Of a DNA stretch of 64,000 nt, positions 8,004 to 57,226 are shown one piece after another (the stretch's first letter is position 1; each line of letters begins with the position of its first letter). The notes under the pieces were generated by a model. The model worked only from the letters and a program-made list of their open reading frames with translations, was not told where the DNA came from and searched no databases. Both the position numbers and the translations under genes were made by a program. Source of the stretch: a virus. The stretch lies in the IMG/VR virus record IMGVR_UViG_3300005573_000052; one strand, written 5' to 3'.

Positions 8004-8873
8004 ATGGTCCCCCAGTTCTCCAATAACCTATACGCGAGCACCTTCCTCTGGCTTGAACATCAGTTCGCCCAGAAGGCGGTCGCGTATCAGACCCTGACGA
8101 CCCCACTCTACTACGTGCCCGACACCCAGTTGCCAGTGGGTTACGTGCGCTACAGTTCGCCTCTAAAAGGCTGGGTTTATGATTCGGGTGTCAGTGGAGC
8201 AGTGGTGATTCAAACGGTCAGCGGGGCAAGCGGCATTTTGCTCCAACGGTCGAGCGGGATGAAGATCGACTACAACAACGGTGGCATCATCCTACCCTCT
8301 TCTTATGGCACAGGTCTCACGCTGACTGGCACTTACAGCTTCCGTGAGGTCAATATGTATCAGGCCAATGAGACTCAAGAGGCCCTGATTACGCAGGGAA
8401 AGTTCTTCCGCAACCCCCGGTTCGTTTATCAAGCCACCTCAGGTATAGCTCCCTATACCTATGTCACGCCCGCCGTGTTTCTTGACATCCTCAGTTCCAA
8501 AACCGATGCATTCCAGTTTGGCGGGTTGATAGAAAGCACCGTGACCTTCACGGCGACCATTTTGGCTGAATCCACCTTCCAGCTCAACGCGTTGCTGTCC
8601 ATTTCCAGTGACCAGAAATATCAGTATCTGCCCGTCTTCAACGCCATTGATGACGTGGTGGACGAATGGGGCGATACCAAAAGCGGGCTCTACAATTACA
8701 ATGCGCTGGTTGAGATGTGGGGCACGCCCGGCAATCTCGCCTACGTCAAAAACGTGAGAACGGCCAAAATGTCGGACCGGGTCAAGGCCAACCCTCTGCT
8801 GTTCATCGGAGTGGCTGATTTCGAGATAAGCTATGTCCGGCAAGCACCGATTTCGACTAATGTGTTCGTTTGA
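8004..8873 (+). CDS. Putative tail terminator/completion structural protein
   Basis: Synteny before the tail-tube genes; Ser/Thr/Gly-rich virion-like composition. Confidence 0.5.
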   Translation: MVPQFSNNLYASTFLWLEHQFAQKAVAYQTLTTPLYYVPDTQLPVGYVRYSSPLKGWVYDSGVSGAVVIQTVSGASGILLQRSSGMKIDYNNGGIILPSSYGTGLTLTGTYSFREVNMYQANETQEALITQGKFFRNPRFVYQATSGIAPYTYVTPAVFLDILSSKTDAFQFGGLIESTVTFTATILAESTFQLNALLSISSDQKYQYLPVFNAIDDVVDEWGDTKSGLYNYNALVEMWGTPGNLAYVKNVRTAKMSDRVKANPLLFIGVADFEISYVRQAPISTNVFV

Positions 8874-9036
8874 TGACTGTTTCACTCCGCTACCCCAAGT
8901 GTATCTCCTGCTCTCAACCCCTTTTTCCAGTCCAGCTAGCCCAAGGTCCAAGGTAACGTAACCCACCCCGCCCATGCCCAACGCACGTTAGCTCGGGTAA
9001 AAATAACAAGAGAATCTGTCGAATCTTGTTCTGGCG

Positions 9037-9044
9037 GGTGTATA
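9037..9044 (+). promoter_or_regulatory. Late promoter GGTGTATA driving tnpB
   Basis: 9 nt before the tnpB ATG. Confidence 0.7.
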
Positions 9045-9052
9045 GTAGGCCG

Positions 9053-10291
9053 ATGCACAAAGGTTACAGTTTCCGCCTTTACCCGACAGAGACCCAAAAG
9101 GCTCTGCTTGAAAAGCATTTTGGTTGCGCTAGATGGGTCTATAATTGGGCTCTGGAACAGAAAATCGCCTATTACCAGAAAGAAAAAAAGGGAGTGTCAA
9201 TGTATGAGGTGGCAAGGGAATTGACCAAGCTAAAGCGTGAAGAGGGGAAAGAATGGCTTCAAGAAGTGTCGAGTCAGTCTCTCGGCTATTCCATGATGCA
9301 TTTGGATAGAGCTTTTACTAATTTTTTCAAGCACAAAAAGGGATTTCCTAAGTTCAAAAGCAAGAAAAAGAGCCGAGCGAGTTTCACTCACAATTTGAGT
9401 AACGATCTCAACGAAGAGAAGGGGCTTGTTTACGCAACCAATTTTAGAGAGGGGATAAGATGTGTTTTCACTCGTCCTGTCGAAGGGAAGATTAAGCGGA
9501 TGACGTTTTCCCGGACCAAGACGGGAAAATACTATGTCGGGATATTAGTCGAGACCCCGGAGGAGTTCCCCACACCCCCGCCTCCAAGGGAAGAACTCTC
9601 CGTAGGAATAGACTTAGGGCTGAAGACGTTTGCAACATTAGACGACGGAACCAAGATTGATACCCCGAAATTCCTTCAAGGTTCCCTCCAAAGGCTCAGG
9701 CGAGCGCAAAAGCATTTAAGTCGCTGCCAATATGGGTCCAAAAATTGGGAAAAGGCGCGTGACAAGGTGGCCAGACTGCATGAGCACGTAGCTAACTCCC
9801 GAAAAGATTTTCTGCACAAGGTCAGTCATAAACTAGTATGCGATAATCAAGCTACTACGTTATGCATTGAAAACTTGGACATAACAGAAATGATAGAAAA
9901 GGCCCCTTCGCGGCGTAAAAGGTCGATTTACGACGCGGGGTGGAGGATGTTTAGGGGTATGCTAGAATACAAGTGCGAGTGGCACGGCAAAAATTTAATG
10001 ATGATAGGCCAGTTCGAGCCTTCAAGCAAGATATGCTCGTGCTGTGGGGAGATGAACAAAGACCTCGGCAAAAAACGAGAATGGACGTGTAAAAAATGTG
10101 AGACACACCACGACCGAGACATCAATGCCGCCAAAAACATAAAAAAAATAGCCTTTTGCAAGCAGAACACTGTGTCTGCCAAGATTTTACCGCCGGACAG
10201 GCGGGATGTTAAGCCTGTGGAGAGTTCCGTTTTGGAATTCAACGAAGCAGGAACGGAAAAGGATCGCCTAACTCCCTCACGGGGTGTATAG
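9053..10291 (+). CDS. tnpB: RNA-guided endonuclease TnpB (IS200/IS605 OrfB)
   Basis: KGYSFRLYPT HTH, FPKFKSKK, RuvC GIDLG / IENL / RDINAAKNI, zinc finger CSCC..CKKC. Confidence 0.95.
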   Translation: MHKGYSFRLYPTETQKALLEKHFGCARWVYNWALEQKIAYYQKEKKGVSMYEVARELTKLKREEGKEWLQEVSSQSLGYSMMHLDRAFTNFFKHKKGFPKFKSKKKSRASFTHNLSNDLNEEKGLVYATNFREGIRCVFTRPVEGKIKRMTFSRTKTGKYYVGILVETPEEFPTPPPPREELSVGIDLGLKTFATLDDGTKIDTPKFLQGSLQRLRRAQKHLSRCQYGSKNWEKARDKVARLHEHVANSRKDFLHKVSHKLVCDNQATTLCIENLDITEMIEKAPSRRKRSIYDAGWRMFRGMLEYKCEWHGKNLMMIGQFEPSSKICSCCGEMNKDLGKKREWTCKKCETHHDRDINAAKNIKKIAFCKQNTVSAKILPPDRRDVKPVESSVLEFNEAGTEKDRLTPSRGV

Positions 10292-10335
10292 ACGTAAACC
10301 GACTCTGGTGTCAATTTTCTTTCAAGGAGCCCACA
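10185..10335 (+). ncRNA. TnpB omegaRNA (scaffold to about 10314, then guide); 5' end uncertain
   Basis: CCGCC-GGACA-GGCGG stem, GCCTGTGGAG..hairpin..GAAGCAGGAA core, 3' GGTGTCAA able to pseudoknot with loop GACA. Confidence 0.7.
10283..10290 (+). promoter_or_regulatory. Late promoter GGTGTATA overlapping the tnpB stop, driving tail tube 1
   Basis: Motif, 46 nt before the ATG at 10336. Confidence 0.7.
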
Positions 10336-11298
10336 ATGCCTAACACATTTTTCCAAGGTGCCGAACTGGCCATGTCCAGCGGCGTAACGCCCGGAGTAAT
10401 GGCCAACATCCAGCGTCTTCAGGATGTCCGCATTGACTACCAGATTCCCCGCACCGAGGTCCGAACCTTGGGCCGTTTCAAACCCCTGAACGACCGCCCA
10501 GTAATCAATTATACCCCGGTTAACATGTCGGTCAGCTACGTCAAGTCTAACAAGGACGTAGAACGTAATTTAGGCATCCTGAACAGCACGGGTGTGGCTG
10601 TGCAAATCGGTCAGAATGTGGAACTTACAAGCTGGGGCTGTCGGAACTACACGCTTTACAACGCTCCGGTCACATCGCCCAACTACGCCAATGAGTGGGA
10701 CGTTGTCTCAGGCGTCCTCAAGTCGTTCGCGCTCAATGGGTCGGTTGGCCAGCCGGTCAACGGGTCGTTCAGTGTGGAAGCCCTTGATTTACAACAGGCT
10801 GCAAACAACACGGCTCGCACCATTCCCTCCTACTCGGGCAATGTCATCAAGCCGGAAAACACAATCATCACCGGCATCAATTTCACCGGACTTGGCTTTT
10901 CGGGCCTGATTGTCCAGTCGTTCAACCTCCAAACCGCCTTCAATTACGCCCAAACCTTCCGTATCGGCACCCAGTTCCCCGAGCGACGCATGACGGACGC
11001 CATGGCGAGTCTTCAAATCAGCGCGTTTATGGAGGGGACGACCAATACGGTTACCAGCCTGAACCAATATGCCTGTGGGACCTTCATTACCGGGCTTTAC
11101 GTGCTGACCATGCAGCCGAGTTGCACGACCGATGTTCCCACCACCGTAACCATGTCCTATCCCTATCTGGAAAGCCAGTCGCTGGGTGCGCAGGTGGGCA
11201 ATTATATCGCGGTGGAGCTGAGTTTTGTGACGCCCCTGAGCGTCGTGGCCTTTGAAGCAACCGGTGCGAATCAAGGGTCCAATCTGACTATTACCTAA
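10336..11298 (+). CDS. Tail tube-like protein (paralog 1)
   Basis: QRLQDVRIDYQIPRTEVRTLG motif shared with 11368 and 31175; synteny before chaperones and TMP. Confidence 0.65.
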   Translation: MPNTFFQGAELAMSSGVTPGVMANIQRLQDVRIDYQIPRTEVRTLGRFKPLNDRPVINYTPVNMSVSYVKSNKDVERNLGILNSTGVAVQIGQNVELTSWGCRNYTLYNAPVTSPNYANEWDVVSGVLKSFALNGSVGQPVNGSFSVEALDLQQAANNTARTIPSYSGNVIKPENTIITGINFTGLGFSGLIVQSFNLQTAFNYAQTFRIGTQFPERRMTDAMASLQISAFMEGTTNTVTSLNQYACGTFITGLYVLTMQPSCTTDVPTTVTMSYPYLESQSLGAQVGNYIAVELSFVTPLSVVAFEATGANQGSNLTIT

Positions 11299-12602: not shown

Positions 12603-13844
12603 ATGTTAACTCCTCATTATCGAATCGCGCCAGTTAAACCCGAAAACTCCGAAACAGAGAAACTGATTAGGCTATACTACGTGGAACAAAAACTTGGCCT
12701 TGAGAAAGCCGCAAGCAAGATGGGCCATACGGCAGGATGGATGATTGCCAGACTGAAGGGTCTTGGAATCCCGATAAGGGGGAGACTTGAGTGTCACAAG
12801 AAATATAAGGTTAATGAAAATTATTTTGAACGGATAGACTCCCACGAAAAGGCTCTCGTTCTTGGATTTATCTACGCAGACGGCTGCGTTCATCTCATGG
12901 ACGGCAAGACATTCAGAATGCAAATAGCGCTCCAACATCGGGACATCGACTACCTTGAATATATCAAAGGGTGTCTTGATTACGAAGGTCCAGTGAGAAC
13001 ACACCTATTAAAAAGGAACGGAAGGTATTACTCCTATCTGAACATTGGTAGTGACAAGATGTGTCGGGACCTGATAAAGTTGGGGTGTCACGAAAGAAAA
13101 TCTCTCGTATCCAAGTTCCCCACTGAGGAGCAAGTGCCCCGAGAGTTCCTGTCGTCGTTCATTTGTGGATTTTTCGACGGAGATGGAGGATATGGTCTAA
13201 GCAAGAAACCTTACGTGGATGCACTCTCCCTCAGTTTTGCCATATCTTATGACATGGCCCTCGTCTTTCAGGATTACCTAAAAGACCAATTGAGGGTTCA
13301 TGCCCATATGAGTAAAGAGCCAAGGGATGAAGGTAAGGACCCAAGGACCCACATTTGGAAACTACGCACCGGAGGAAACCCACAGACCCTGAGACTTGCT
13401 GATTGGATGTATTCCCATGCGCCGTTTAAGATGAAACGGAAATACGACATCTACCTGAGCGTTCGTCAGCATTACGACGAAAACCTCGTTTGGATCAAGC
13501 CTGCCCATTGGTTGCAAGAAGTAACCGAAAAAGCCAGAATCAATTCTACCGGACGGGTTTGCTCTGAAGAGACAAAACGAAGAATGAAAGCTTCGGCTTT
13601 GAGCAACAAGAATCGAAATAAATGGCATCCTCTCTCCATCAAGTCCCCTTCTGGTCAGGTCTACCACTCCAACTGTTGCTTCAAGCTTTACAAGGAAATT
13701 TTGAAGGACTTAGGGCTGCACAACACCTACCTCTCCAAGATGGCCTCCGGCAAGATCACTTGCTACAAAGGCTACACCATAGCCACCCCCGCCGAGGTTG
13801 CCGCCGCCCGCGAAAACGGCACGTTGGTTGAGAAAATCTACTAA
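12603..13844 (+). CDS. Free-standing LAGLIDADG homing endonuclease with N-terminal HTH and NUMOD3-like C-terminal segment
   Basis: LVLGFIYADGCV and FICGFFDGDGG motifs; CSEETKRRMKAS; AT-rich. Confidence 0.85.
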   Translation: MLTPHYRIAPVKPENSETEKLIRLYYVEQKLGLEKAASKMGHTAGWMIARLKGLGIPIRGRLECHKKYKVNENYFERIDSHEKALVLGFIYADGCVHLMDGKTFRMQIALQHRDIDYLEYIKGCLDYEGPVRTHLLKRNGRYYSYLNIGSDKMCRDLIKLGCHERKSLVSKFPTEEQVPREFLSSFICGFFDGDGGYGLSKKPYVDALSLSFAISYDMALVFQDYLKDQLRVHAHMSKEPRDEGKDPRTHIWKLRTGGNPQTLRLADWMYSHAPFKMKRKYDIYLSVRQHYDENLVWIKPAHWLQEVTEKARINSTGRVCSEETKRRMKASALSNKNRNKWHPLSIKSPSGQVYHSNCCFKLYKEILKDLGLHNTYLSKMASGKITCYKGYTIATPAEVAAARENGTLVEKIY

Positions 13845-32728: not shown

Positions 32729-32736
32729 GATACACC
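32729..32736 (-). promoter_or_regulatory. Late promoter variant GGTGTATC
   Basis: Abuts the stop codon of the tandem LAGLIDADG gene. Confidence 0.65.
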
Positions 32737-34538
32737 TAGGGCGACGTGGTTTGTGGGGAGGAAGAGATGGGTTCGGTGTAAGTAGTTGGGGATGACCCGT
32801 TTAGGATAGACGTAAAAAAGGATTCGGGGGGCCAGATGTCAGTTCGCGCCTTCCAAAAGTCAACAATAGCCAAAATGGCAGGATTGTCCCATTTGCGGGA
32901 CAGGTTGGGAGTGGGGAGGCGGCGGAGGAGGGTGAAGAGGACGGCGGCTTGGAGACCACGGACCGTGAAGTAGTAGCAGGTTTCGTCATCACCTTGGCGG
33001 ACAAGGGATTCGCGCCCTCGATCAATACGGGGGAGATTGAGGTCGTCTATCGCGCGCTTGATGCCAGCGATTATCTCGCGGTTCACCCCGCAGACCATAA
33101 TGGTCATGGAGCCGGGCTGGTTGGAGCGGGTGACACAGCCGTCGCCGTCAATGAAGCCGCGAAGGAAGCTGAGTTTGGAAATGATGTCGGGGAAGGTGGG
33201 AAGCTCGCAACGAAGAGTCTTGTTGACCGTGATGTTGAAATTGCGTTCTAGGTCAGCGTGCCATTCGGTGGCGCTCTCGATGGAAATACGGCACTGAGGA
33301 GTGGGACCGGCCTTAGCTCCCGGAAGATTGCATTCGGCCATGAAGTTGACAATGGGCTGTTCTAACTTGGTCTCAGCCTTGAACCACTCAAGCAGACACC
33401 GGTCTTTTTCGGCTACTGACCAGCGAACAGCCTTGGAATTCCGGTTGATAAACAGACACCCATCAGTGCAAATCAGGCCCGCCCAGTAAGATGTGCGCGG
33501 GGTGATGGTGGAGAAAAAGGAGCGGTCGTAGTCATACTTGGGGTAGCTGCCGTATTCGCGGGTGCGAAGGGCGGTCATCGACTCAATGTGAGCTATTGCG
33601 CTCGTCAGCCCAAATGTTGCGGCGATTTCGGGTAACGGGTGGGTTTCGCGTAGGGCAGACAGGGCAATTGGGGATACGTTGGCTGACTCGACCATTTCCA
33701 CATAGCGGCGCAACTTGCTCCATTTGCGTTCCAAACGGATGATGTCAAGTGACAGGAATATCTTGGCCAGCCAATAGACCTTGGCTCCGCCCACCGAGTA
33801 ATTGAAGGTGCTGTCGGCCTCCTTGAAGCGCACGATTGCCGCGTCGGACTCGGGCGCCCATTGGTCAAAATGGGCCTTGACCCAAGTAAGCATCGTCTCC
33901 TTCCCGCCCAGCGAAATGTTATACTTGGTTGTGTCGGTTTCGGACACATATTCGACAATCCATCCGTTGCCGTCAATCAGTCCCGAGATGAACGCGGCGA
34001 CGAGGCGCGGGTCTGAGATATTGGGTGGACGCAGGGTCTCGGTCTTGCGCGGAAAGATATTCCAGTGCTCGCCGAGCTTGGCACAGATTTCCCCGCCGGT
34101 TATCTGCATTCGGGACAGCGAGTAGGTCTTCTTGTTACCGTCAGCGTCGGGCTTTACGAACTCGTCAAACGCGTGGTTCTCGGAGTCAAGGATGTTGGCT
34201 GTGGAGTCAAGTGCGGCGCGCACTGCCTCAAGATGAGCCCGGTCCTTGCTGGACATGTTGAAGACGAGGCGGGGCTCTCCAGACGTGACACTGCCGTTTC
34301 CTGCGATGAACCCGGCTACAGCGCAGTTTTGCTCGGTCGGAGTGTCAAAGTAGTGCCGGTTGTGGACGGGCAGCACCTTGATGGCTATTTCCAGCTTCTG
34401 CGCCCGAGAGCGGATGGAGTCGTAAGTGCGCCCCGGGAGAAATGCCATCACCTCTCTGATGGTCTTGCAGGTGGCGAATTTTTCGCGGAGGAGGGCGTCT
34501 TCGGTGGAAGACCAAGGGGTAGAGACAGAGATAGACAT
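32736..34538 (-). CDS. Tandem (four-motif) LAGLIDADG endonuclease with N-terminal Myb-like HTH
   Basis: VAGFIAGNG, ISGLIDGNG, WAGLICTDG, LRGFIDGDG; WSSTEDALLRE. Confidence 0.82.
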   Translation of the reverse strand: MSISVSTPWSSTEDALLREKFATCKTIREVMAFLPGRTYDSIRSRAQKLEIAIKVLPVHNRHYFDTPTEQNCAVAGFIAGNGSVTSGEPRLVFNMSSKDRAHLEAVRAALDSTANILDSENHAFDEFVKPDADGNKKTYSLSRMQITGGEICAKLGEHWNIFPRKTETLRPPNISDPRLVAAFISGLIDGNGWIVEYVSETDTTKYNISLGGKETMLTWVKAHFDQWAPESDAAIVRFKEADSTFNYSVGGAKVYWLAKIFLSLDIIRLERKWSKLRRYVEMVESANVSPIALSALRETHPLPEIAATFGLTSAIAHIESMTALRTREYGSYPKYDYDRSFFSTITPRTSYWAGLICTDGCLFINRNSKAVRWSVAEKDRCLLEWFKAETKLEQPIVNFMAECNLPGAKAGPTPQCRISIESATEWHADLERNFNITVNKTLRCELPTFPDIISKLSFLRGFIDGDGCVTRSNQPGSMTIMVCGVNREIIAGIKRAIDDLNLPRIDRGRESLVRQGDDETCYYFTVRGLQAAVLFTLLRRLPTPNLSRKWDNPAILAIVDFWKARTDIWPPESFFTSILNGSSPTTYTEPISSSPQTTSP

Positions 34539-36651: not shown

Positions 36652-39243
36652 TTAACGCGTTTTGCGGGTGGACTTTTTGGCGGCTTCGGCGAGGTCGGCG
36701 ACCTTGGTGCCACCGATGGAGGCGACTTGAGCGAAGGCTTCCATGTATTTGTCCTTCAGGCTTTGACCGCGAGCGGCGTCGCCGAGGTCATTGACCACGG
36801 GAGCATCAGTCGGATTGGCTTGGGCAGAAGCGAGAGCCTGTTGAGCAGCAGCCTTGCAAGCTTTGTCATCAGCGTCATCATCCGGCTCCTTGTCGTTCTT
36901 CTTATCGCCGAGCTTTTCACCGCCCTTGTCGGGGAAAGCGGCCTTGGACCAGCCCTTATAGAGCTTCTTGGCGCGGGCAAGCCACTTGGCGAACGCGGCG
37001 TCATCGGCGCAGGCCTTGATCTCGTCAATCACTTCGGCGCGAGTCTCGTCGTCAAAGGCGAAATTCGCCTCGACCGTGGCCATGCGCTCGTTGAACTGGG
37101 CCTCGGCGGCAGCGGCCTGCTGCGCGGCGACAGCCTCGTCATGGGATTTCTTGAGAGCAGCAAACTGGCGCTGCATGTCTTCAAGGGCGGCTTGTGTGGT
37201 GGCCTGAGCGGCAACGGCGTCGGCGCGCTCCTTGGCGAACTTCTCGCTGGCCTTGGCGATTTCCTCGGTAAAGAGGGCTACGTTAGCCATGGCGGTAGGA
37301 AGCTCTTCCACGGTTTTGACAGACGCAATGGTCTGCTTGATGTCATCGAGATTCATGGTAGGTGATACGGTGGGGTTGGGAGTGGAAACTGATACACCTG
37401 CGGTGGCGGTGTTTGTGAGAGTCGGCATGAGAGCGCGCCCGGCGGCGGAGGCAAAAATGGCGGCGAGACGGGCGAAAACGTCATCCAGCGCGGCCTTGAT
37501 GGCATTGTCCGTGTAAGGCGCGTTGCGACCCTTGTCGTTCAGTGCGTTGTTGGCATCCTGCTTCAGCGCGGCCTCGGGGCGCACGGTCGGATATTGGTCG
37601 CCGATGCGAGGGTGAACGAGCTTGGTGTCGTCAGTTTGTGGCGGCATACCGGGCGTCATGGAGGTGATGGTGACATGCGGGGGCATGGCCAGCTCTTTTT
37701 CCAGTTGTAGCGTCGCGCCGTCGAAAATCTTGACATTGGTTAGCTTGGTGCCGTCCGACAGCGTAACATCCACGCCGTTGACCAGCGGCGCGCTTCCGTT
37801 GTTGGGCAATTGGATGTTGGCGAGGGCATTCTGCCACTCGGGGGTAAGCTTGAGGAAACAGGAGGAAGTCGTGGACATAGGAATGTCGGCTGTGGGGGTA
37901 TACACCTGCTCGGCAGAGGTTTGACGGAGAGGGATTTCCACCGGGTCGCCGGTATGGGGGCGGAACGAGAGGGAATTGAAGGTCATGGCGTGGCCCATAA
38001 ACCGCTTGTCGCCAACGTATTGCGCGGCGCGGCCCTTCTTGGTATAGCACAGGGTTAGGTGGGGTTGAAAATCGAGCCACGCATAGTCGTTATCCGTGGA
38101 GGTGCGAAGTAGGTGATGGAGGGTGTGGATGTCCTGTCCCTCGACCGTGACCTTGAGGACATCATAAGGGGCATCGTCGCGCTCGAAAGCGGAAACTTCG
38201 CCCATCGTGATGGTAGCCGGACCCATGTCAGCCAGTGCGGTTTGGATAGGCGCGGCATCGGCGGTTTTGATGCCGTATAGCACGGTGGCATGGCTTTCCG
38301 TCTCCCGCCCATATTTGCCCGCCCCCTCGCCCTCCCCATAATACAAATCGTCCTCCGGGATACTCGCCGCAAACTCCAGATAGCGCGCCGCGTCGGCGGA
38401 CGAGAGAGTGAACTGAGTGGAACTGCGACTATAAAGCCCGGCATCCAGCACGTCGGCCAACGGGTGGACGAAATTGGGGTTGGACAGCACTGGAGCAATG
38501 CCCTTGACGGCTGCGGCGGGCACCGCGACAATCCCGGCCCCGAGCGGCACAATCTCGCCCCTCAGCACCCGCGCGACACGCTCGCCAGTCGATGCAATCG
38601 CCCCCTTGCCGCCATTGCACCTGAGGGTCTTGTCCCACTTCTCCCAGTCGCCGGAATCGGGTGTGATGAGTTTGGTCGCCAGAGCTAAGTCCGACTTCCC
38701 CTTGGGCAGCACGACCACATCGTAGTCATCGAACCCGACCTCGAATGACAGGGACAGCCTGCCCTTGTCGCGCGAACCGGGCGCGGCGGACTGGATGATG
38801 AAATTGCACAGGTCCTTGTCGGCGACCTTCCAGATGGCCATGGCGATGGCGATGTTGCATGGCTTGTTGGCTTCCCTCGCCTCGTCCACGGTGAGTAAGC
38901 GGTCGGTACCGATTTCGGACAGCCCAGCCTTGACGATGTAGCCCACAATCACGCCACGGTTGTGTTCGATATCGACCAGTTGGCCCTCGAACTTGGGGTA
39001 GACTCGGAGAGTGTCTTCGAGACTGACTGCGTCATCATTGAGGTTACAGACTCCGCCTACTGCCAGATTGCCAACGACATACAAAATGGTCGGATGATCC
39101 TCCGGGTTGATAGAGGAGGGAAGCAGCCCCTTCAGTCGGTCAATCGACGCGCAAATCTCGTTTCGCTCTGCATCGGAGGGCGGGTGATAGTGGCCGACTG
39201 CCTCGAAGCGGGCCTTGTATTTGGGCGTGTAGAACTCGGGCAT
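36652..39243 (-). CDS. Prohead protease - 2H phosphoesterase (Acb1-like) - scaffold polyprotein
   Basis: N-terminal DIEHNRG / LSFEVGF protease-like motifs; HATV (H318) and HLTL (H395); C-terminal Ala-rich coiled coil; between portal and MCP. Confidence 0.75.
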   Translation of the reverse strand: MPEFYTPKYKARFEAVGHYHPPSDAERNEICASIDRLKGLLPSSINPEDHPTILYVVGNLAVGGVCNLNDDAVSLEDTLRVYPKFEGQLVDIEHNRGVIVGYIVKAGLSEIGTDRLLTVDEAREANKPCNIAIAMAIWKVADKDLCNFIIQSAAPGSRDKGRLSLSFEVGFDDYDVVVLPKGKSDLALATKLITPDSGDWEKWDKTLRCNGGKGAIASTGERVARVLRGEIVPLGAGIVAVPAAAVKGIAPVLSNPNFVHPLADVLDAGLYSRSSTQFTLSSADAARYLEFAASIPEDDLYYGEGEGAGKYGRETESHATVLYGIKTADAAPIQTALADMGPATITMGEVSAFERDDAPYDVLKVTVEGQDIHTLHHLLRTSTDNDYAWLDFQPHLTLCYTKKGRAAQYVGDKRFMGHAMTFNSLSFRPHTGDPVEIPLRQTSAEQVYTPTADIPMSTTSSCFLKLTPEWQNALANIQLPNNGSAPLVNGVDVTLSDGTKLTNVKIFDGATLQLEKELAMPPHVTITSMTPGMPPQTDDTKLVHPRIGDQYPTVRPEAALKQDANNALNDKGRNAPYTDNAIKAALDDVFARLAAIFASAAGRALMPTLTNTATAGVSVSTPNPTVSPTMNLDDIKQTIASVKTVEELPTAMANVALFTEEIAKASEKFAKERADAVAAQATTQAALEDMQRQFAALKKSHDEAVAAQQAAAAEAQFNERMATVEANFAFDDETRAEVIDEIKACADDAAFAKWLARAKKLYKGWSKAAFPDKGGEKLGDKKNDKEPDDDADDKACKAAAQQALASAQANPTDAPVVNDLGDAARGQSLKDKYMEAFAQVASIGGTKVADLAEAAKKSTRKTR
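37391..37398 (-). promoter_or_regulatory. Internal late promoter variant GGTGTATC before in-frame ATG 37356
   Basis: Motif 35 nt upstream of M630 (MNLDDIK, scaffold start). Confidence 0.5.
37899..37906 (-). promoter_or_regulatory. Internal late promoter GGTGTATA before in-frame ATG 37878
   Basis: Motif 21 nt upstream of M456, just after the 2H domain. Confidence 0.55.
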
Positions 39244-41479: not shown

Positions 41480-42229
41480 TTAGATTTGGTAGTCGCTAAT
41501 CCACAAATCGTCGCCCTTTAATTGGTTGTGTTTCTGCCACATCGGAAAGAGATTACTCCAATGAAAGCATTGTTTTTGCTGTTCTGGATCGGTCAAATCA
41601 AAGTAAGTGCAGGGAAAGTAGTGATCTATGTTCCACTTGTCGGGTCCAAACCCGTAGTTGTCCCACGTCATCCCGTTTTCAAAATTTTTTTCTAGCCACT
41701 GTTTGAAAAAATCAACGGTGCAGCCTAACAAATCCAACGTCGAAGCACTTTTCTTTTTGCGTCTCAACGCGCAGGAAAGCCTTCCTCGAAGCCTATTAGT
41801 AATTTTATACTGAATGTCGGTTTTTTCTCGTTCTTTTCTTCTCTTGCGATTGTTGGCATTAATTTCTTTTCTTCGACTCTTTTGGTATGCAGCCAATTTT
41901 TCTTTGTGGCGAAAATCGTAACTAGTCTTATTTTCTTTCACAAAGGCCCTCGCTTCTTCTCTTGTTCGGTTTTCCTTTCTAGCTTTTCGTTTCAATTCAG
42001 AAGAGTGCCCCTTGTAATATAACTGGGTGGCTGCGTAATACTCTCTGTTTTCTTCTCGCCATTTATAGACATTAGCCTTGACTCGTTCCCAATTCTTTTT
42101 CCTGTATTCCTTATTTTTGACCCGACTACACGCCCGACAAATAAACTTATAACCACTCTTGGTATACTTATCTTTGACAAAGTCTACCAATGGCTTCTCT
42201 GTCTTGCAGCAATAACACGTCTGATTCAT
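41480..42229 (-). CDS. HNH-type homing endonuclease with N-terminal CxxC..CxxC
   Basis: WNIDHYFPC...HWSNLFPMWQKHNQLKG; AT-rich; ATGA overlap with TerL. Confidence 0.75.
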   Translation of the reverse strand: MNQTCYCCKTEKPLVDFVKDKYTKSGYKFICRACSRVKNKEYRKKNWERVKANVYKWREENREYYAATQLYYKGHSSELKRKARKENRTREEARAFVKENKTSYDFRHKEKLAAYQKSRRKEINANNRKRRKEREKTDIQYKITNRLRGRLSCALRRKKKSASTLDLLGCTVDFFKQWLEKNFENGMTWDNYGFGPDKWNIDHYFPCTYFDLTDPEQQKQCFHWSNLFPMWQKHNQLKGDDLWISDYQI

Positions 42230-45200
42230 CGTAGAGCAAGCATCACAGGTATAAATTCGTCAACCTCGGGAGAAGGTAACTCTTGGGAAGCCAAATAAAT
42301 TTTTAGAGCCCAATTTGCAAGCCAGAGAGCACTGTAACTATCGCGCCGATTACGCTGGACATTCTTCCGGTTCTTGGTCATGTGGCTGGGCAGGTCGAAA
42401 CTGATATGGCCCAGTGCCGTGCTGCTCACTTCAATCAGCGCACACTCTTTCTTGGTCTGTTCCATGAGCACGTCCTGATGGTTGACGAACTCATAGGCAT
42501 TTCCCATCCCCTCCACGTCCTCGTCGTGAAAGGCGGGGTGGGTTTGATGAATCGACCCAATATCATAGCCCGCCAACTCGGCAGTCTTACCCACAGAGGC
42601 CGCGTGAGAAGCGAAGATAATGGCCCGTTCATTAAGACAGGCACGAAGATAATCGTTGCCCGCCTTGATGATGGATGTGCTAAAATACTGCTTCTGCACG
42701 ATGCGCTTGACACTGCTGTCTCGGTTGTAGGACTTGGCGACCTGACCGACAATGGTCTCAAAGTCGGCCCCGGCGAAATCTGCATCAATGGCGTTCAATT
42801 CCAACTTGGCCTGCTTGAACACCTCCGACTCATTGCATGCACTGATGAAGTCGCCTTGGTCACCGTGGGACGTATCGCAAATGAGATAGACGATGTTGAA
42901 ATGGGTCAGGATGAACATCAGATAGGCCATGTGGTGCTTCAAACCCACTCCGGCGCAGGCGTATTGGTGGACGACCATGCCTACCTTGCGCCCGTCTCTC
43001 GCGCGCGCCACCACCTTCATCACACACATGGCGAAATGGTCGCCCGCTGGATCGGAACTCATTGACGGGTCAATGGCGAGGATGTACTCTGCGCCCTTTT
43101 CGCCCGTCACCTCGATGCAAGGTAATTGCCCCGGAGCCACACTGCACTCGTGAATTTCCTTGGCACTGAAGAAGCCACCAGATTCGTCAATGAACTGTGC
43201 CTCATATTCGCGTTTGATGACAGATTCTGGGATACGCTTTTCGCGGATTTCTTGCAGAATACCCGCGTCCATCAGGTCGGGATTGCCAACTTTGTAGGAT
43301 AATTGGTGGACAAGGTACGTTGCTGCGCCAGCGTCTGTTTCCTCTGCCTTGGCTGCCCCTTCGATGTCACTCTTCTCGATGATAGCTCGATACTGTTTAT
43401 ACATCGAGTACAGCTCTTCCCACTTGTAGGATGCCGAAGACAGCACAATCATCTTGGAATCGGCCTTGAATACGGTCTTGTCCTTTTCCTGCATCTTGCC
43501 CGCCTCGATAAGCCGTGCCTCGCGACGACGCAAGAGCTGCTTTTTGGTCGGGTCTGCGCCGCCCGCGAGGAAGGGCTTGAGCACCATGTTGATGGTGTGG
43601 TGGGAGATAAGGAGACCTTCGTCAATGCCGAGCAGGTTGCACCGGAAGCCGCGTAAGTTATCAGGGTCGCCCAAGGGGACGGCGGTGATAGACGAGCCAT
43701 TCTTGAACACGATTTTGATGAGGTCCTGTCGCTTGATCATGTCGCGCTCAAAGGTCTGGCGGAGCAGGGCACCTTTGGTCTTGGGATTGGCCCATTCGTC
43801 AATGCGCTCCACAATCTGGCGACTGGAACGGAAAGTTGCGGCGCAGATTAGGATGTGGTGGCCCGGATTGAGGAGGCAGTAAAGGTAGCAAAAGTGGGAA
43901 AAAACTGTGGAGTTGTGATTGACGAATCCTCCGCTCCAATAACACTCCTCCTTATCGACCTGAATATCAATCGTTTCCGTCTCGGTCGGGGAGATAACAC
44001 GGATTGAGTCGAAATAGCACTGAGAGTCAAGAATCGCTCGAATCTTAGCCTTGTCTGTCTCGTCAACGAAGGGGCAATCCAAAAATTCGGCCAAACGGGC
44101 AGTGGAAATCCAATCCAAAATTCGTAGGTCGTAAGCGCGCCTGAAGGCTTGTCCATACTTGGCCCGAAAATACGGACCGACCCTTAGCATGTTGTGCTTG
44201 TAGGCTGAATTGGTCGGCTTGGACAGATAAAGGTCGAGCTTGGCCTGCTTGCGTTTAATCCCAAACCCAATCTCTCGGCTGAAGATTTCAAGACTTCGGC
44301 GGTCAAATATATCAATGGCCCACGCGTTGTGGGTTTGATAGTCTTTGCCGTTGGAGAAGCGATGGGTCCCAGCTACATGTTTTTGGGTGACCGAGGCGAG
44401 AATCCCGTAGTTGAGAAGGATGGAATGGACCTTGTCAATGATATCGCGAGACGAGCTACCCAGCTCGATTTCACACCGATTGGTCTTGGGATTGAGAGTG
44501 CAACTCCCATCCGTATCAAAAAGGCCGCGCAAAAAGGCGGACACCTTTGGTTTGCTAACCGATAGGATTTTTGCTGGAACCGTCTTTTGATAGGCTAACT
44601 CACTGTCGAAGCCCATGTAACGAAGGAAGGCCTTAAAGCGGACGCTGCAAAACATGTAATCCTTGGCCGCGCTGTCTTTGACTTTGACTGAGACCTTGGT
44701 GTTCGGCAGGTGGTCTCGAATCATGGTATAGACAGAATCAACCACCTCTTGGTCCATTGAGCTTACCCCGACAGTTCCTCCCTGTTGGCGCATCGTTCCG
44801 TCCCCAAGGATGACTCCCATTACGTAATAGAGGTTCAGGTCCTCATCCAGAACCATAGGGTGAGAGGGATGCCCGGGTTTGGTTCCTCGGTCCGGCTGGA
44901 AATAGTTGGCGATAGGGGTCTCATTTCCCCAATGGTCCATACCGCGACGGATTGGGATGATTTCATTGCCCTTCAAGGTCTCAATGTTTTGCCACGTAAA
45001 CTCCAAGGATGACGAGTCAAATACCCAAACCTTATGTCCGACCTTTCCGGTGCAGATATACCCACGGTTTGTCGTGACAGTGAATCCCGGTTCCTTGGGG
45101 TTCTCGACCTTAGCTAGCACCGTCTGGGGAGACCGGTTAGCCCAAATACGTTCGCCAACCTTGACTTGGTGGATTTCCTTAAATCCCTCGTCGGTAAGCA

Positions 45201-45474
45201 CTAAGGAGTTCCGGTCGATGCATTTACCAAAGCTACGTCCTGCGACCGTGAGGGAAAAGTTCTTCTGCATCCACCCCTTGACCACGATGCGCTGATAGGG
45301 CTCCAACAGCTTGCCGGTGAGCAGCCAGACCAGCACGCCAAGGTTGTGCATGAGGAACTTGCCCAAGGTGCGGCGCGCCACGTCCTCGGACAGTTCACCC
45401 TCCAGCTTGAGGAACTCGGCGTTCCAGTCGGTCTGGTCAGCCGTGGTCTTGGTCTTGTCTCCGGCAATCCACAT
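42226..45474 (-). CDS. terL: Terminase large subunit with intein
   Basis: GRSFGK|S Walker A, LRGFRCNLLGIDE Walker B, EYEAQF, ILAIDP RNase H nuclease, RRDSYSAL. Confidence 0.9.
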   Translation of the reverse strand: MWIAGDKTKTTADQTDWNAEFLKLEGELSEDVARRTLGKFLMHNLGVLVWLLTGKLLEPYQRIVVKGWMQKNFSLTVAGRSFGKCIDRNSLVLTDEGFKEIHQVKVGERIWANRSPQTVLAKVENPKEPGFTVTTNRGYICTGKVGHKVWVFDSSSLEFTWQNIETLKGNEIIPIRRGMDHWGNETPIANYFQPDRGTKPGHPSHPMVLDEDLNLYYVMGVILGDGTMRQQGGTVGVSSMDQEVVDSVYTMIRDHLPNTKVSVKVKDSAAKDYMFCSVRFKAFLRYMGFDSELAYQKTVPAKILSVSKPKVSAFLRGLFDTDGSCTLNPKTNRCEIELGSSSRDIIDKVHSILLNYGILASVTQKHVAGTHRFSNGKDYQTHNAWAIDIFDRRSLEIFSREIGFGIKRKQAKLDLYLSKPTNSAYKHNMLRVGPYFRAKYGQAFRRAYDLRILDWISTARLAEFLDCPFVDETDKAKIRAILDSQCYFDSIRVISPTETETIDIQVDKEECYWSGGFVNHNSTVFSHFCYLYCLLNPGHHILICAATFRSSRQIVERIDEWANPKTKGALLRQTFERDMIKRQDLIKIVFKNGSSITAVPLGDPDNLRGFRCNLLGIDEGLLISHHTINMVLKPFLAGGADPTKKQLLRRREARLIEAGKMQEKDKTVFKADSKMIVLSSASYKWEELYSMYKQYRAIIEKSDIEGAAKAEETDAGAATYLVHQLSYKVGNPDLMDAGILQEIREKRIPESVIKREYEAQFIDESGGFFSAKEIHECSVAPGQLPCIEVTGEKGAEYILAIDPSMSSDPAGDHFAMCVMKVVARARDGRKVGMVVHQYACAGVGLKHHMAYLMFILTHFNIVYLICDTSHGDQGDFISACNESEVFKQAKLELNAIDADFAGADFETIVGQVAKSYNRDSSVKRIVQKQYFSTSIIKAGNDYLRACLNERAIIFASHAASVGKTAELAGYDIGSIHQTHPAFHDEDVEGMGNAYEFVNHQDVLMEQTKKECALIEVSSTALGHISFDLPSHMTKNRKNVQRNRRDSYSALWLANWALKIYLASQELPSPEVDEFIPVMLALR
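43912..45222 (-). mobile_element. Intein (437 aa) with LAGLIDADG homing endonuclease
   Basis: N-terminal CIDRNSLVLT, C-terminal GFVNHN followed by Ser; MGVILGDG and LRGLFDTDG motifs. Confidence 0.92.
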
Positions 45475-46478
45475 CAGAGAAGGCCCCGCTCGTGGAGGTG
45501 TTGGAGGTCTACGCGGCGAACCTGTTCGCCCATCTGAAACAGGCGGACGACAGTCTGGGCCATCTCGATTCGGCCATTCAGAAACAGGACTTGGAAATGG
45601 AGAGGGTGACGGGTGAGCAGCTCGCGCAGGTTGTGGAAGACATAGGCGGGGCTGGCTTTGACCCATTGGGTCTGGGGCAGTTGGTCAAACCGTTGGGCAT
45701 CAATGATGTCGGCTTCAACTACCATGATGACATAGAGGTTCTGTTCCCGGGCGCGGGCCAGTTCGCGGTCGAACCGGTCAAACGCGCAATCCTCGGTCCG
45801 CCCGGTGCCCTTGCGTCCACCCTTGCGCTCCACCTTGCGTCCGCTGAGGGTGCCACAGAAATCGCCAAGGCTCTTGCGCTCGATGCGGATACCCAAATCG
45901 TGTGGCGCGGCCAGTGCGTAATCGCCCACTTTCAGGGTCTCGTTGCGGGTCGGGATGGACAGATGAAGGGGGGCCTGTTCACGGGTGTCGCTGATGACCA
46001 CCGCGTCTTTGGTTAGGGCCGGATGAAACACGGGCAGTTCGTCGTAATAGCGCGGCGCGAATCCAAGAGCCTCGGTAATACCGTAATACCCACCCTCGCT
46101 GACTCCAACGGTATCGTAGTAAGGCATGGACGGACAGGTTAACGTCCGTAACTCCACTTGCGACGGCGCATAAACCAACCCCTTGCTCTCCTTGCGCTTC
46201 ATCAACCACTCCTTGGCCCAAGCCAGCCCTTCGGCGCGGTGTTTGGTCAGCCATTCCCTCAGGGTCTCCTTGGACACGAAGTCCTGAGAAAAATACTGAT
46301 CTACGTCGGTGAATGGAATCAGTTCGCCGTTGACCCGGTCCTTGCGCGGGTGATAGGTATGGAAAAACTTGGCTCGGGCGACCCGAAACCGCTTCAGGTG
46401 GGCGTAGAGCGACGCCAAATCGGGGTGGACGGTCTGGTCGAAGGGGCAGGTATAGGGGAAGGTGAGGGCGGAGGCCAT
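45474..46478 (-). CDS. ERCC4/XPF-domain nuclease with N-terminal zinc-finger-like segment
   Basis: ISDTREQ, GDYAL, IERKSLGDFCGT, IMVVE; TGATG overlap with TerL. Confidence 0.82.
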   Translation of the reverse strand: MASALTFPYTCPFDQTVHPDLASLYAHLKRFRVARAKFFHTYHPRKDRVNGELIPFTDVDQYFSQDFVSKETLREWLTKHRAEGLAWAKEWLMKRKESKGLVYAPSQVELRTLTCPSMPYYDTVGVSEGGYYGITEALGFAPRYYDELPVFHPALTKDAVVISDTREQAPLHLSIPTRNETLKVGDYALAAPHDLGIRIERKSLGDFCGTLSGRKVERKGGRKGTGRTEDCAFDRFDRELARAREQNLYVIMVVEADIIDAQRFDQLPQTQWVKASPAYVFHNLRELLTRHPLHFQVLFLNGRIEMAQTVVRLFQMGEQVRRVDLQHLHERGLL

Positions 46479-56527: not shown

Positions 56528-57007
56528 CTAGGAGACAGTAATCCGTTTGGGCGCGGGAGTCAAGGCCTTTTTGATCACAATGGTCAGGAGACCATTCTTC
56601 AGCTTGGCGGTCGCGCTATCCGGTTGGATGTCAGAGGGTAGGGCGATGGAACGGGTGATGAGGTTGGAGCCAAGTTGTCCATTTGCGCGCTTGGAAACCC
56701 CTTCGCCGGTTGCCCGCTTGGCCGTGACGGTGAGATGGTTGTCTTGTGTCAGCTCGACCTCGATTTCCTCGCGCGCGAACCCGGGCAGTGCGACGATGAA
56801 CTCATAACCCGAATCGTCCTCGGTGGCTGAGAAGCGCGAATCGGTCAAGGCGGCGGCGGACGGCCCCAACAATGACTCGAATAGGGAGTCAAAGGGGTCG
56901 GTAAACTGGTCCAGTCCACGCCAAAGCGTGCGACGTGAAACGGGACTGAACAGGTTGTTGAGGGCGACGAACTGGGGAGCGGATTGATGGGGGATGAGAG
57001 TAAGCAT
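56528..57007 (-). CDS. Small heat-shock protein (Hsp20)
   Basis: ALPGFAREEIEVEL, ITRSIALP, AKLKNGLLTI alpha-crystallin motifs. Confidence 0.9.
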   Translation of the reverse strand: MLTLIPHQSAPQFVALNNLFSPVSRRTLWRGLDQFTDPFDSLFESLLGPSAAALTDSRFSATEDDSGYEFIVALPGFAREEIEVELTQDNHLTVTAKRATGEGVSKRANGQLGSNLITRSIALPSDIQPDSATAKLKNGLLTIVIKKALTPAPKRITVS

Positions 57008-57226
57008 GGTTGAGATTATTGGGTTGGATTTGGGTGGGTTATGGTTTGATTGATGTGATGGCCGAGCGAAAAAAACGATGCGCTCAGCGCCCGACCTAGT
57101 AGCCATTAGCGTGCCGGATAGGGAAATTGATGTAACTAAGTCATAACGAGTTAGTTAGGCTAAAACAGGTGTTGGCAAACAGTGTCAGCGTGACACAGTG
57201 GCGGCGCACATTGGGCAATTTTGTGC

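Follow-up and report, generated by a model that had tools for sequence, protein, structure and literature searches.

At one locus in IMG/VR virus record IMGVR_UViG_3300005573_000052, a tnpB gene of the IS200/IS605 type, its guide-RNA scaffold and two versions of the start of a tail-tube gene follow one another in the structural module of a large uncultured phage known from metagenomes of hot springs. The 64,000 nucleotides analysed here (the window) represent part of that phage, and the features of the locus are collected in Table 1.

The element and the split tail-tube head

A search with the tail-tube protein retrieved 89 homologues, the best of them 92% identical and encoded in a 2.8-kb contig, L054, where 107 nt separate the upstream and tube genes and no tnpB is present. 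The window is continuous with L054 up to ~8981 and resumes from ~10330 in BLAST and MAFFT alignments, so that 8875–8983 constitutes native intergenic DNA, with a conserved promoter-like AAGTGTATCT at 8897–8906, and the opening bases of the tube gene. The element occupies 8984–10314 (1331 bp), exactly between nucleotides 10 and 11 of a tube-gene head, with zero bases lost or gained. The preliminary description of this DNA, made from its letters alone, had read the element as an intergenic insert, with its left end at a TTGAT motif (8870–8874) taken as the transposon-associated motif (TAM). In the empty L054 allele, 8875–8983 has its homologue in native intergenic DNA and the start of the gene, which contradicts this left end, leaves unconfirmed the proposal that excision of 8875–10314 would yield a compact operon, and places the element instead after nucleotide 10 of a retained old copy of the tube head. 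The right end at 10314 and the guide start at 10315 were correctly recognized, as indicated by a TGTCAA terminus shared with relatives and by the coding-sense flank from 10315 onwards; the same evidence disposes of an alternative right end at TTCAA (10321–10325).

Ten more alleles, from more distant relatives (L055–L062, L097–L100), have the two genes adjacent and lack tnpB. All 11 alleles of relatives, including the one with the 92% identical tube protein, are therefore empty, a presence/absence polymorphism between conserved genes. A metagenome scan added just five tube loci, every one empty, and the covariance model of the scaffold described below detected no remnant of the guide RNA in the empty alleles of relatives. 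The expectation that the junction of empty alleles would equal TAM plus guide was borne out in part: there are empty alleles with homology to flank plus guide, yet they join at another place than predicted.

The two sides of the element read as one coding sequence. When the flanks are joined, ATG CCC AAC G/TT TTC TTT CAA GGA GCC encodes MPNVFFQGA, the N-terminus of the L054 protein and a match to the family consensus MxNxFFQGAEL; the probability of obtaining this peptide from a random 17-mer is ~3e-8. The joined 27 nt differ from L054 at five positions, all synonymous, three of them within 10315–10331. In its present state the old start runs into the first bases of the element as a five-codon open reading frame (ORF), MPNAR* (8974–8991), and the candidate TAM, read from the flank, is CAACG at 8979–8983. 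Since the scaffold ends with TGTCAA at 10314, the guide would start at 10315, within the old gene.

Directly downstream the tube gene begins anew. Its intact head (10336–10362; ATG CCT AAC ACA TTT TTC CAA GGT GCC, MPNTFFQGA) is unlike the split copy at 7 of 27 positions. Set against TAM plus guide, it reads TAACA (then CATTTTTCC) for CAACG and mismatches the guide at positions 1, 2, 5, 8, 14, 18 and 20, that is, at 7 of 20 positions, four of them in the first 12. Codon 4, still GTT in the split copy, is ACA (Thr) here, a change unique among 26 sequences, the 25 relatives carrying Val, Leu or Ile; it covers the final base of the TAM together with guide positions 1 and 2. Target codons 4–9 (VFFQGA) match the family consensus, FFQGA being conserved across the tube family. 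We infer that the working head of the carrier would be resistant to cutting. The guide had earlier been described as the ribosome-binding site and start of the tail-tube gene. It is rather the old spelling of tube codons 4–9, but it does include AAGGAG (10324–10329, old codons caA GGA Gcc), which now serves as Shine-Dalgarno sequence for the intact copy in a phage where the leaders of most other genes are C-rich and lack such a sequence.

Table 1. Features of the tnpB locus, in window coordinates
Feature	Position	Strand	Remarks
Upstream structural gene, 289 aa	8004..8873	+	Left neighbour of the tube gene, conserved in all relatives
Native intergenic region, outside the element	8874..8973	+	Aligns with L054 1393-1499, with an identical CCAAGGTCCAAGGTAACGTAACCCAC block
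Old tube-head start, 10 nt, ATGCCCAACG	8974..8983	+	Contiguous with native upstream DNA; homologous to the gene starts of L054, L059 and L055
Left part of the element, 69 nt	8984..9052	+	GGTGTATAG at 9037-9045; no left-end hairpin of the relatives' kind
tnpB, 412 aa	9053..10291	+	Pfam and PHROG matches; catalytic triad and zinc finger intact
Guide-RNA (omegaRNA) core, conserved	10185..10253	+	Fold, covariation, covariance-model match
Lineage-specific 55-nt insert in the scaffold variable region	10254..10308	+	Between GAAGCAGGAA and TGTCAA; 0 nt in L065 and L067
Scaffold and right-end terminus TGTCAA	10309..10314	+	Terminus shared by L025, L027, L029, L038, L043 and L065; flanks diverge directly after it
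Guide template (predicted), old-head nt 11-27 (TT TTC TTT CAA GGA GCC)	10315..10331	+	Joined to 8974-8983 gives MPNVFFQGA
Junction CACA, old head fragment to intact gene	10332..10335	+	Tube homology stops after 10331, 17 nt from the presumed TAM
Intact tail-tube gene, 320 aa	10336..11298	+	89 homologues; weak Phage_tube_2 match

TnpB, its scaffold and the promoter-type motif

The tnpB product matches the Pfam domains HTH_OrfB_IS605, OrfB_IS605 and Cas12f1-like_TNB (E values of 1.6e-19, 2.4e-29 and 4.4e-23, all above the curated cut-offs) and phrog_506, annotated as transposase (2e-123). Residues 2–368 align with ISDra2 TnpB (8BF8/8EXA) with an E value of 8e-65, D187, E273 and D356 fall on its catalytic D191, E278 and D361, and both CxxC pairs are present, in agreement with the initial statement that the RuvC residues are intact. 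The gene occurs once in the window. Among 5.8 billion proteins the nearest is 53% identical, and the closest TnpBs (49–53% identity) are all encoded in large phage-like contigs without annotated tnpA. The nearest tnpB of all (L065:5001–6230) lies in a related phage at another place in the structural module, flanked by genes of 572 and 639 aa; L065 comes from a metagenome series whose assembly accessions (GCA_0403841xx-0403844xx) neighbour those of L055 and L056, it carries GIY-YIG and Glyco_transf_9 genes as L056 does, and it also has a LAGLIDADG gene. The reported absence of tnpA was likewise upheld as far as 37 of the window's ORFs are concerned, no Y1 transposase adjoining tnpB or appearing among these scanned ORFs; a regular-expression search for Y1 transposases gave no match anywhere, not even in the control loci, and is uninformative.

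Over the 3′ end of tnpB lies a guide-RNA scaffold. Its core, CCGCC-GGACA-GGCGG followed by GTGGAG, a second hairpin and GAAGCAGGAA (10190–10253), contains hairpin 1 (10190–94 with 10200–04, loop GGACA) and a long-range stem in which CCUG (10214–17) pairs with CAGG (10248–51). The core folds at −25.3 kcal/mol (10185–10253; z −3.5 versus shuffles) and can be aligned collinearly with scaffolds from four relatives: L065 and L067, the two closest, plus L042 and L044. A whole-scaffold MAFFT alignment of 12 sequences was too poor in the variable region for counting pairs, and the five collinear cores were used instead, with a test structure taken from the window's own fold. In these cores hairpin 1 and the long-range stem pair in 45 of 45 cells, six of the nine pairs being compensatory; 0–1 of 500 shuffles reach such values, and slid controls collapse. 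The covariance model scores 78.8 bits at the core, its only match in the window, whose own sequence was in the training set, and it found an independent match in L063. Rfam yielded only a RAGATH-18 match inside the core, weak and below the gathering score (28.9 bits). The fold and the two covarying helices thus substantiate the core proposed at first sight.

The same holds for the suggested pairing between loop and tail. The loop GACA (10196–10199) can pair with TGTC at 10309–10312 as a pseudoknot, and loop and tail covary across relatives: GACA:TGTC in the window, L025, L038 and L043, GGCG:CGCC in L001, GGCAC:GTGCC in L050 and GAAC:GTTC in L042. With loops read by eye, at least four Watson-Crick pairs between loop and tail occurred in 7 of 12 cognate combinations versus 5.6% of non-cognate ones. 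Two side observations concern scaffolds of relatives. A second scaffold copy of omegaRNA type, ending in ...TATGTCAA, lies ~4 kb upstream of the L027 tnpB (L027:814–960), and the same CATGA directly follows the scaffold ends TGTCAA and TGTCAG of L065 (6204–6208) and L067 (6222–6226), respectively, which could mean either right ends longer by 5 nt or a common target preference.

The ends of the element appeared altered. At the position of the 55-nt insert distant relatives carry the right-end hairpin, 22–60 nt long with a TCTTTAG loop, and this hairpin is wholly absent from the L065 scaffold, where the tnpB ORF reads through the guide. The insert of the window had been interpreted as a ~53-nt imperfect stem replacing that hairpin, a view which its fold (z +0.16, no better than shuffles) does not support. 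A possible short CTCCC/GGGG hairpin can be drawn on the right side, with ~24 extra nt before TGTCAA. On the left, relatives have ~150 nt with a CCCC..TTTAG..GGGG hairpin; the 69 nt of the window fold no better than shuffles. Subterminal hairpins at a fixed distance from the ends, as a mobile IS200/IS605-type element would carry, are therefore not found here. The altered ends, the lack of a nearby Y1 transposase and the lack of a second copy are signs that TnpA-dependent mobility may have been lost. An origin of the insert as a copy of another promoter region in the window was rejected, a self-BLAST having found the insert alone.

Two copies of a short motif, GGTGTATAG, are embedded in the element, one 7 nt before the tnpB start codon and the other at 10283–10291 in the scaffold insert, where its TAG is the tnpB stop codon. 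The motif is over-represented in the window, with 24 matches at up to one mismatch versus 6.3 expected. Nearly all of its 13 exact copies lie 7–80 nt upstream of ORF starts in the same orientation, on both strands (e.g. 6805, 7954, 9037, 10283, 16363 and 23095 on the plus strand; 31816, 36617, 39284 and 50156 on the minus strand). Since it also precedes the tube gene in L099, L061, L097, L100 and L056, we regard it as a family-wide promoter-type motif. The late character first ascribed to it is unconfirmed; it precedes non-structural genes too, no −35 partner was seen, and a sigma-70 and terminator scan showed nothing relevant on the plus strand. Of the promoter of its own that tnpB had been credited with, 9 nt upstream, the motif itself stands but the gap to the start codon is 7 nt; with that spacing the tnpB mRNA would be leaderless. 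If the motifs are promoters, they would keep the downstream gene transcribed.

A proposed homing or cleave-and-rescue cassette and its alternatives

Taken together, these data suggest, with a probability that we put at about 0.5, that 8984–10314 works independently of TnpA as an RNA-guided cassette for homing or for cleave-and-rescue, its target being the tube gene of rival phages. The cassette is derived from an IS200/IS605-type element and has no TnpA. According to the mechanism we propose, the omegaRNA would carry ~16–17 nt of the old tube spelling as guide, and in a mixed infection the ribonucleoprotein (RNP) would cut rival tube genes reading CAACG followed by TTTTCTTTCAAGGAGCC, the cut falling in the head of an essential, conserved gene. 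Repair from the carrier would then copy both cassette and resistant head into the rival, as homing with co-conversion, or alternatively the rival would lose an essential gene. The carrier might be doubly immune, since its old target has been parted from the TAM and is now directly preceded by GTCAA, and its working head differs at TAM and seed. Expression of the tube gene would be kept by the promoter-type motifs before tnpB and in the scaffold, and by the AAGGAG of the guide DNA. In ISDra2 the guide comprises ~16 nt of flank past the right end and the RNP cuts 15–21 bp from the TAM (PMC8612924). Here 17 nt of the old gene, about one guide length, are retained after the right end, and tube homology stops inside that cutting zone. 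The LAGLIDADG gene and probable inteins of the same phage, described below, the occurrence of the nearest TnpBs in phage-like contigs without annotated tnpA and the lower GC content of the element also count in favour of this interpretation.

Carried further, the locus could be seen as a natural home-and-rescue drive in which a nuclease, a scaffold, a guide of ~17 nt taken from a rival allele and a re-spelled essential-gene head circulate together among related phages by cutting the tube head of rivals, a possibility that we advance only tentatively. Because the guide differs from the alleles of relatives at synonymous positions only, it may be evolving to track the alleles of the population; the synonymous-only differences of the flanks would fit an insertion of recent date as well as a guide that stays matched to real alleles. 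The proposal that the element behaves as a phage homing endonuclease gene (HEG) and not as an insertion sequence (IS) therefore survives in part: a TnpA-less TnpB with intact catalytic residues and a guide RNA does reside in the structural module, but the anatomy first attributed to it was wrong.

Several observations weigh against such a cassette. The 11 known alleles all depart too far from the guide to be good targets, with mismatches at 5–9 of 20 positions and at least two in the first 12. No match to the guide or the old spelling emerged from exact or degenerate scans of viral contigs; 29 matches in genome contigs were discarded as chance, none of them encoding a tube homologue. Public runs with window DNA show the carrier form only; as they consist of contigs, possibly from the source sample, they say nothing on empty alleles in the population. 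Relatives that share the TGTCAA terminus have left flanks of the TTAC/TTAT type, which CAACG does not resemble (boundary read by eye), and a working guide RNA would have to tolerate the 55-nt insert in its scaffold. Nor does the model account for the duplicated head, for which a repair scar of a TnpB cut and illegitimate recombination at GCC/CCC microhomology are guesses. A duplicated gene end was also looked for beside the L065 element, where the similarity was not above the null.

The lack of a known matching allele would equally suit a fossil. According to this explanation, which we consider less likely but a serious rival, an IS200/IS605-type element that landed in a duplicated tube head has been stripped of its ends and transposase and persists as inert cargo; tnpB would still be open since the event was recent, and the promoter motifs and AAGGAG would remain because they serve the tube expression of the phage. 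The absent or disrupted hairpins at both ends, a single-copy tnpB with no close relative anywhere and a hardly decayed flank fit such a recent event. Inert cargo is harder to reconcile with a full-length ORF that keeps every catalytic and zinc-finger motif beside a covarying scaffold, or with the unique amino-acid change of the intact head exactly at the TAM/seed junction; moreover, two embedded phage-consensus motifs fit a long stay in the phage family, and the nearest TnpBs also reside in phage-like contigs without annotated tnpA.

The insertion is exact and has left no target duplication at either end of the element, which could instead point to a non-autonomous IS moved in trans by a host TnpA, TnpB performing just restorative homing after excision. 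The TCAA at the right end, which we take to resemble that of IS608-type elements, and the multi-copy relatives in varied contexts, such as the L001 family, would agree with this. Such mobility appears improbable nevertheless, given that the left-end hairpin is absent, that the insert replaces or displaces the right-end hairpin region with ~24 extra nt before the cleavage site, that the left flank departs from the TTAC/TTAT of relatives, and that neither a second copy in the window nor anything above 53% identity among the 5.8 billion proteins was found. Comparably little weight is given to co-option for the benefit of the phage without self-copying, either as an RNA-guided weapon killing competitors or as a regulator of the tube operon. 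Regulators of the TldR kind lack the catalytic residues, which are intact here, and the guide fits no other site in the window. The wiring of the cassette into promoter-type motifs and tube translation would favour co-option, and phage homing genes are known to kill competitors as a side-benefit (PMC13565253). A weapon is in any case hard to tell from homing, since repair would copy the cassette into a homologous allele anyway.

Relation to known systems and genomic setting

The protein shares domain order, length, D/E/D triad and zinc finger with ISDra2 TnpB (Karvelis 2021, PMC8612924; PDB 8BF8/8EXA/8H1J). As in ISDra2, the scaffold (reRNA, or omegaRNA) extends over the tnpB 3′ end and the right end, with the guide templated directly after it and a pseudoknot beside the guide. 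Unlike ISDra2, the element has neither tnpA nor a left-end hairpin, bears a 55-nt insert with a promoter-type motif in the right-end hairpin region, is flanked on the left by CAACG and not TTGAT, and sits inside an essential phage gene rescued by a second head. TnpB is known to secure the retention of its transposon through cleavage of the vacated site; such homing has been described as restorative (Meers et al., bioRxiv 10.1101/2023.03.14.532601) and, when directed into plasmids or co-infecting phages, as ‘non-restorative’ (PMC13565253), homing into co-infecting phages being a theoretical case in that 2026 OMEGA review. In common with TnpB-driven homing, the predicted guide here equals the sequence of the element-free allele next to the TAM, and insertion parts TAM and target in the carrier. 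The present case differs from those described in that the target is coding sequence and the cassette brings a resistant replacement of the gene part that would be cut.

The position among conserved structural genes, with absence in relatives, also recalls free-standing phage HEGs such as T4 SegF and Mob (‘intronless homing’, PMC13565253), and so do the distinction of self from non-self by substitutions in a nearby conserved gene, the co-conversion of flanks that would be expected, and the LAGLIDADG genes of this phage. In contrast to those HEGs, recognition would be by a guide RNA, and the old target is kept as guide template. In design, not in descent, the locus is like the HomeR gene drives (Kandul et al. 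2021, PMC7968924), which place nuclease and guide in the targeted essential gene together with a recoded, resistant rescue piece; it differs from them in being natural and phage-borne, with TnpB in place of Cas9 and nine codons replaced. IStrons, which combine a group I intron with an IS200/605 tnpB (PMC10690162), likewise lodge tnpB inside genes without killing them and keep TnpB after the loss of TnpA. They are removed by RNA splicing, whereas here the gene is rescued at the DNA level by the second head, and the Rfam search, with nothing but the weak RAGATH-18 match, indicates that the element contains no intron. Phage-borne tnpB genes have been reported from cyanophage A-1(L) (bioRxiv 10.64898/2026.02.14.705889) and from the Thermus Lalka phages (PMC11437467). 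The literature searched yielded no account of an essential phage gene that harbours a tnpB cassette and is rescued by a second, resistant head.

With regard to the neighbouring genes, the order of a 277–291-aa gene followed by the tube gene is kept in L054, L055, L056, L097 and L100. Pfam and PHROG searches gave no match for the 289-aa upstream gene, the flanking genes had no DNA or protein match in INPHARED phage records, and neither has a relative in IMG/VR. The GC content of the element is 46% versus 55% in the flanks. After a second tube-like gene there is a free-standing LAGLIDADG endonuclease gene (12603–13844, plus strand, 413 aa; PF14528, phrog_4645). Other genes follow the 382–384-aa homologue in L055, L056, L097 and L100, so that the tail module seems to contain a second insertion of homing type. 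LAGLIDADG domains, probably inteins, also occur within a terminase-large-subunit-like ORF of 1146 aa (42226–45666, minus strand) and within a 600-aa ORF (32736–34538, minus strand) that has a Hom_end match as well. Together, the free-standing gene and the domains in these two ORFs suggest a phage family rich in homing elements. Elsewhere on the minus strand, an 863-aa ORF (36652–39243) gave weak, sub-threshold matches to 2′-5′ RNA ligase and anti-CBASS Acb1 families over residues 315–409, and the phage encodes an HSP20 small heat-shock protein (56528–57106). The latter is also present in the 203-kb contig behind L063, which carries a related tnpB.

This locus offers a concrete, testable candidate for transposase-free TnpB spread between co-infecting phages. 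It further indicates that a guide-RNA scaffold can absorb a host-type promoter motif and that the same DNA can act as guide template and as ribosome-binding site. Cassettes of this kind, if active, would shape recombination and competition among phages, and would also provide compact nucleases, probably heat-tolerant, that recognize new TAMs.

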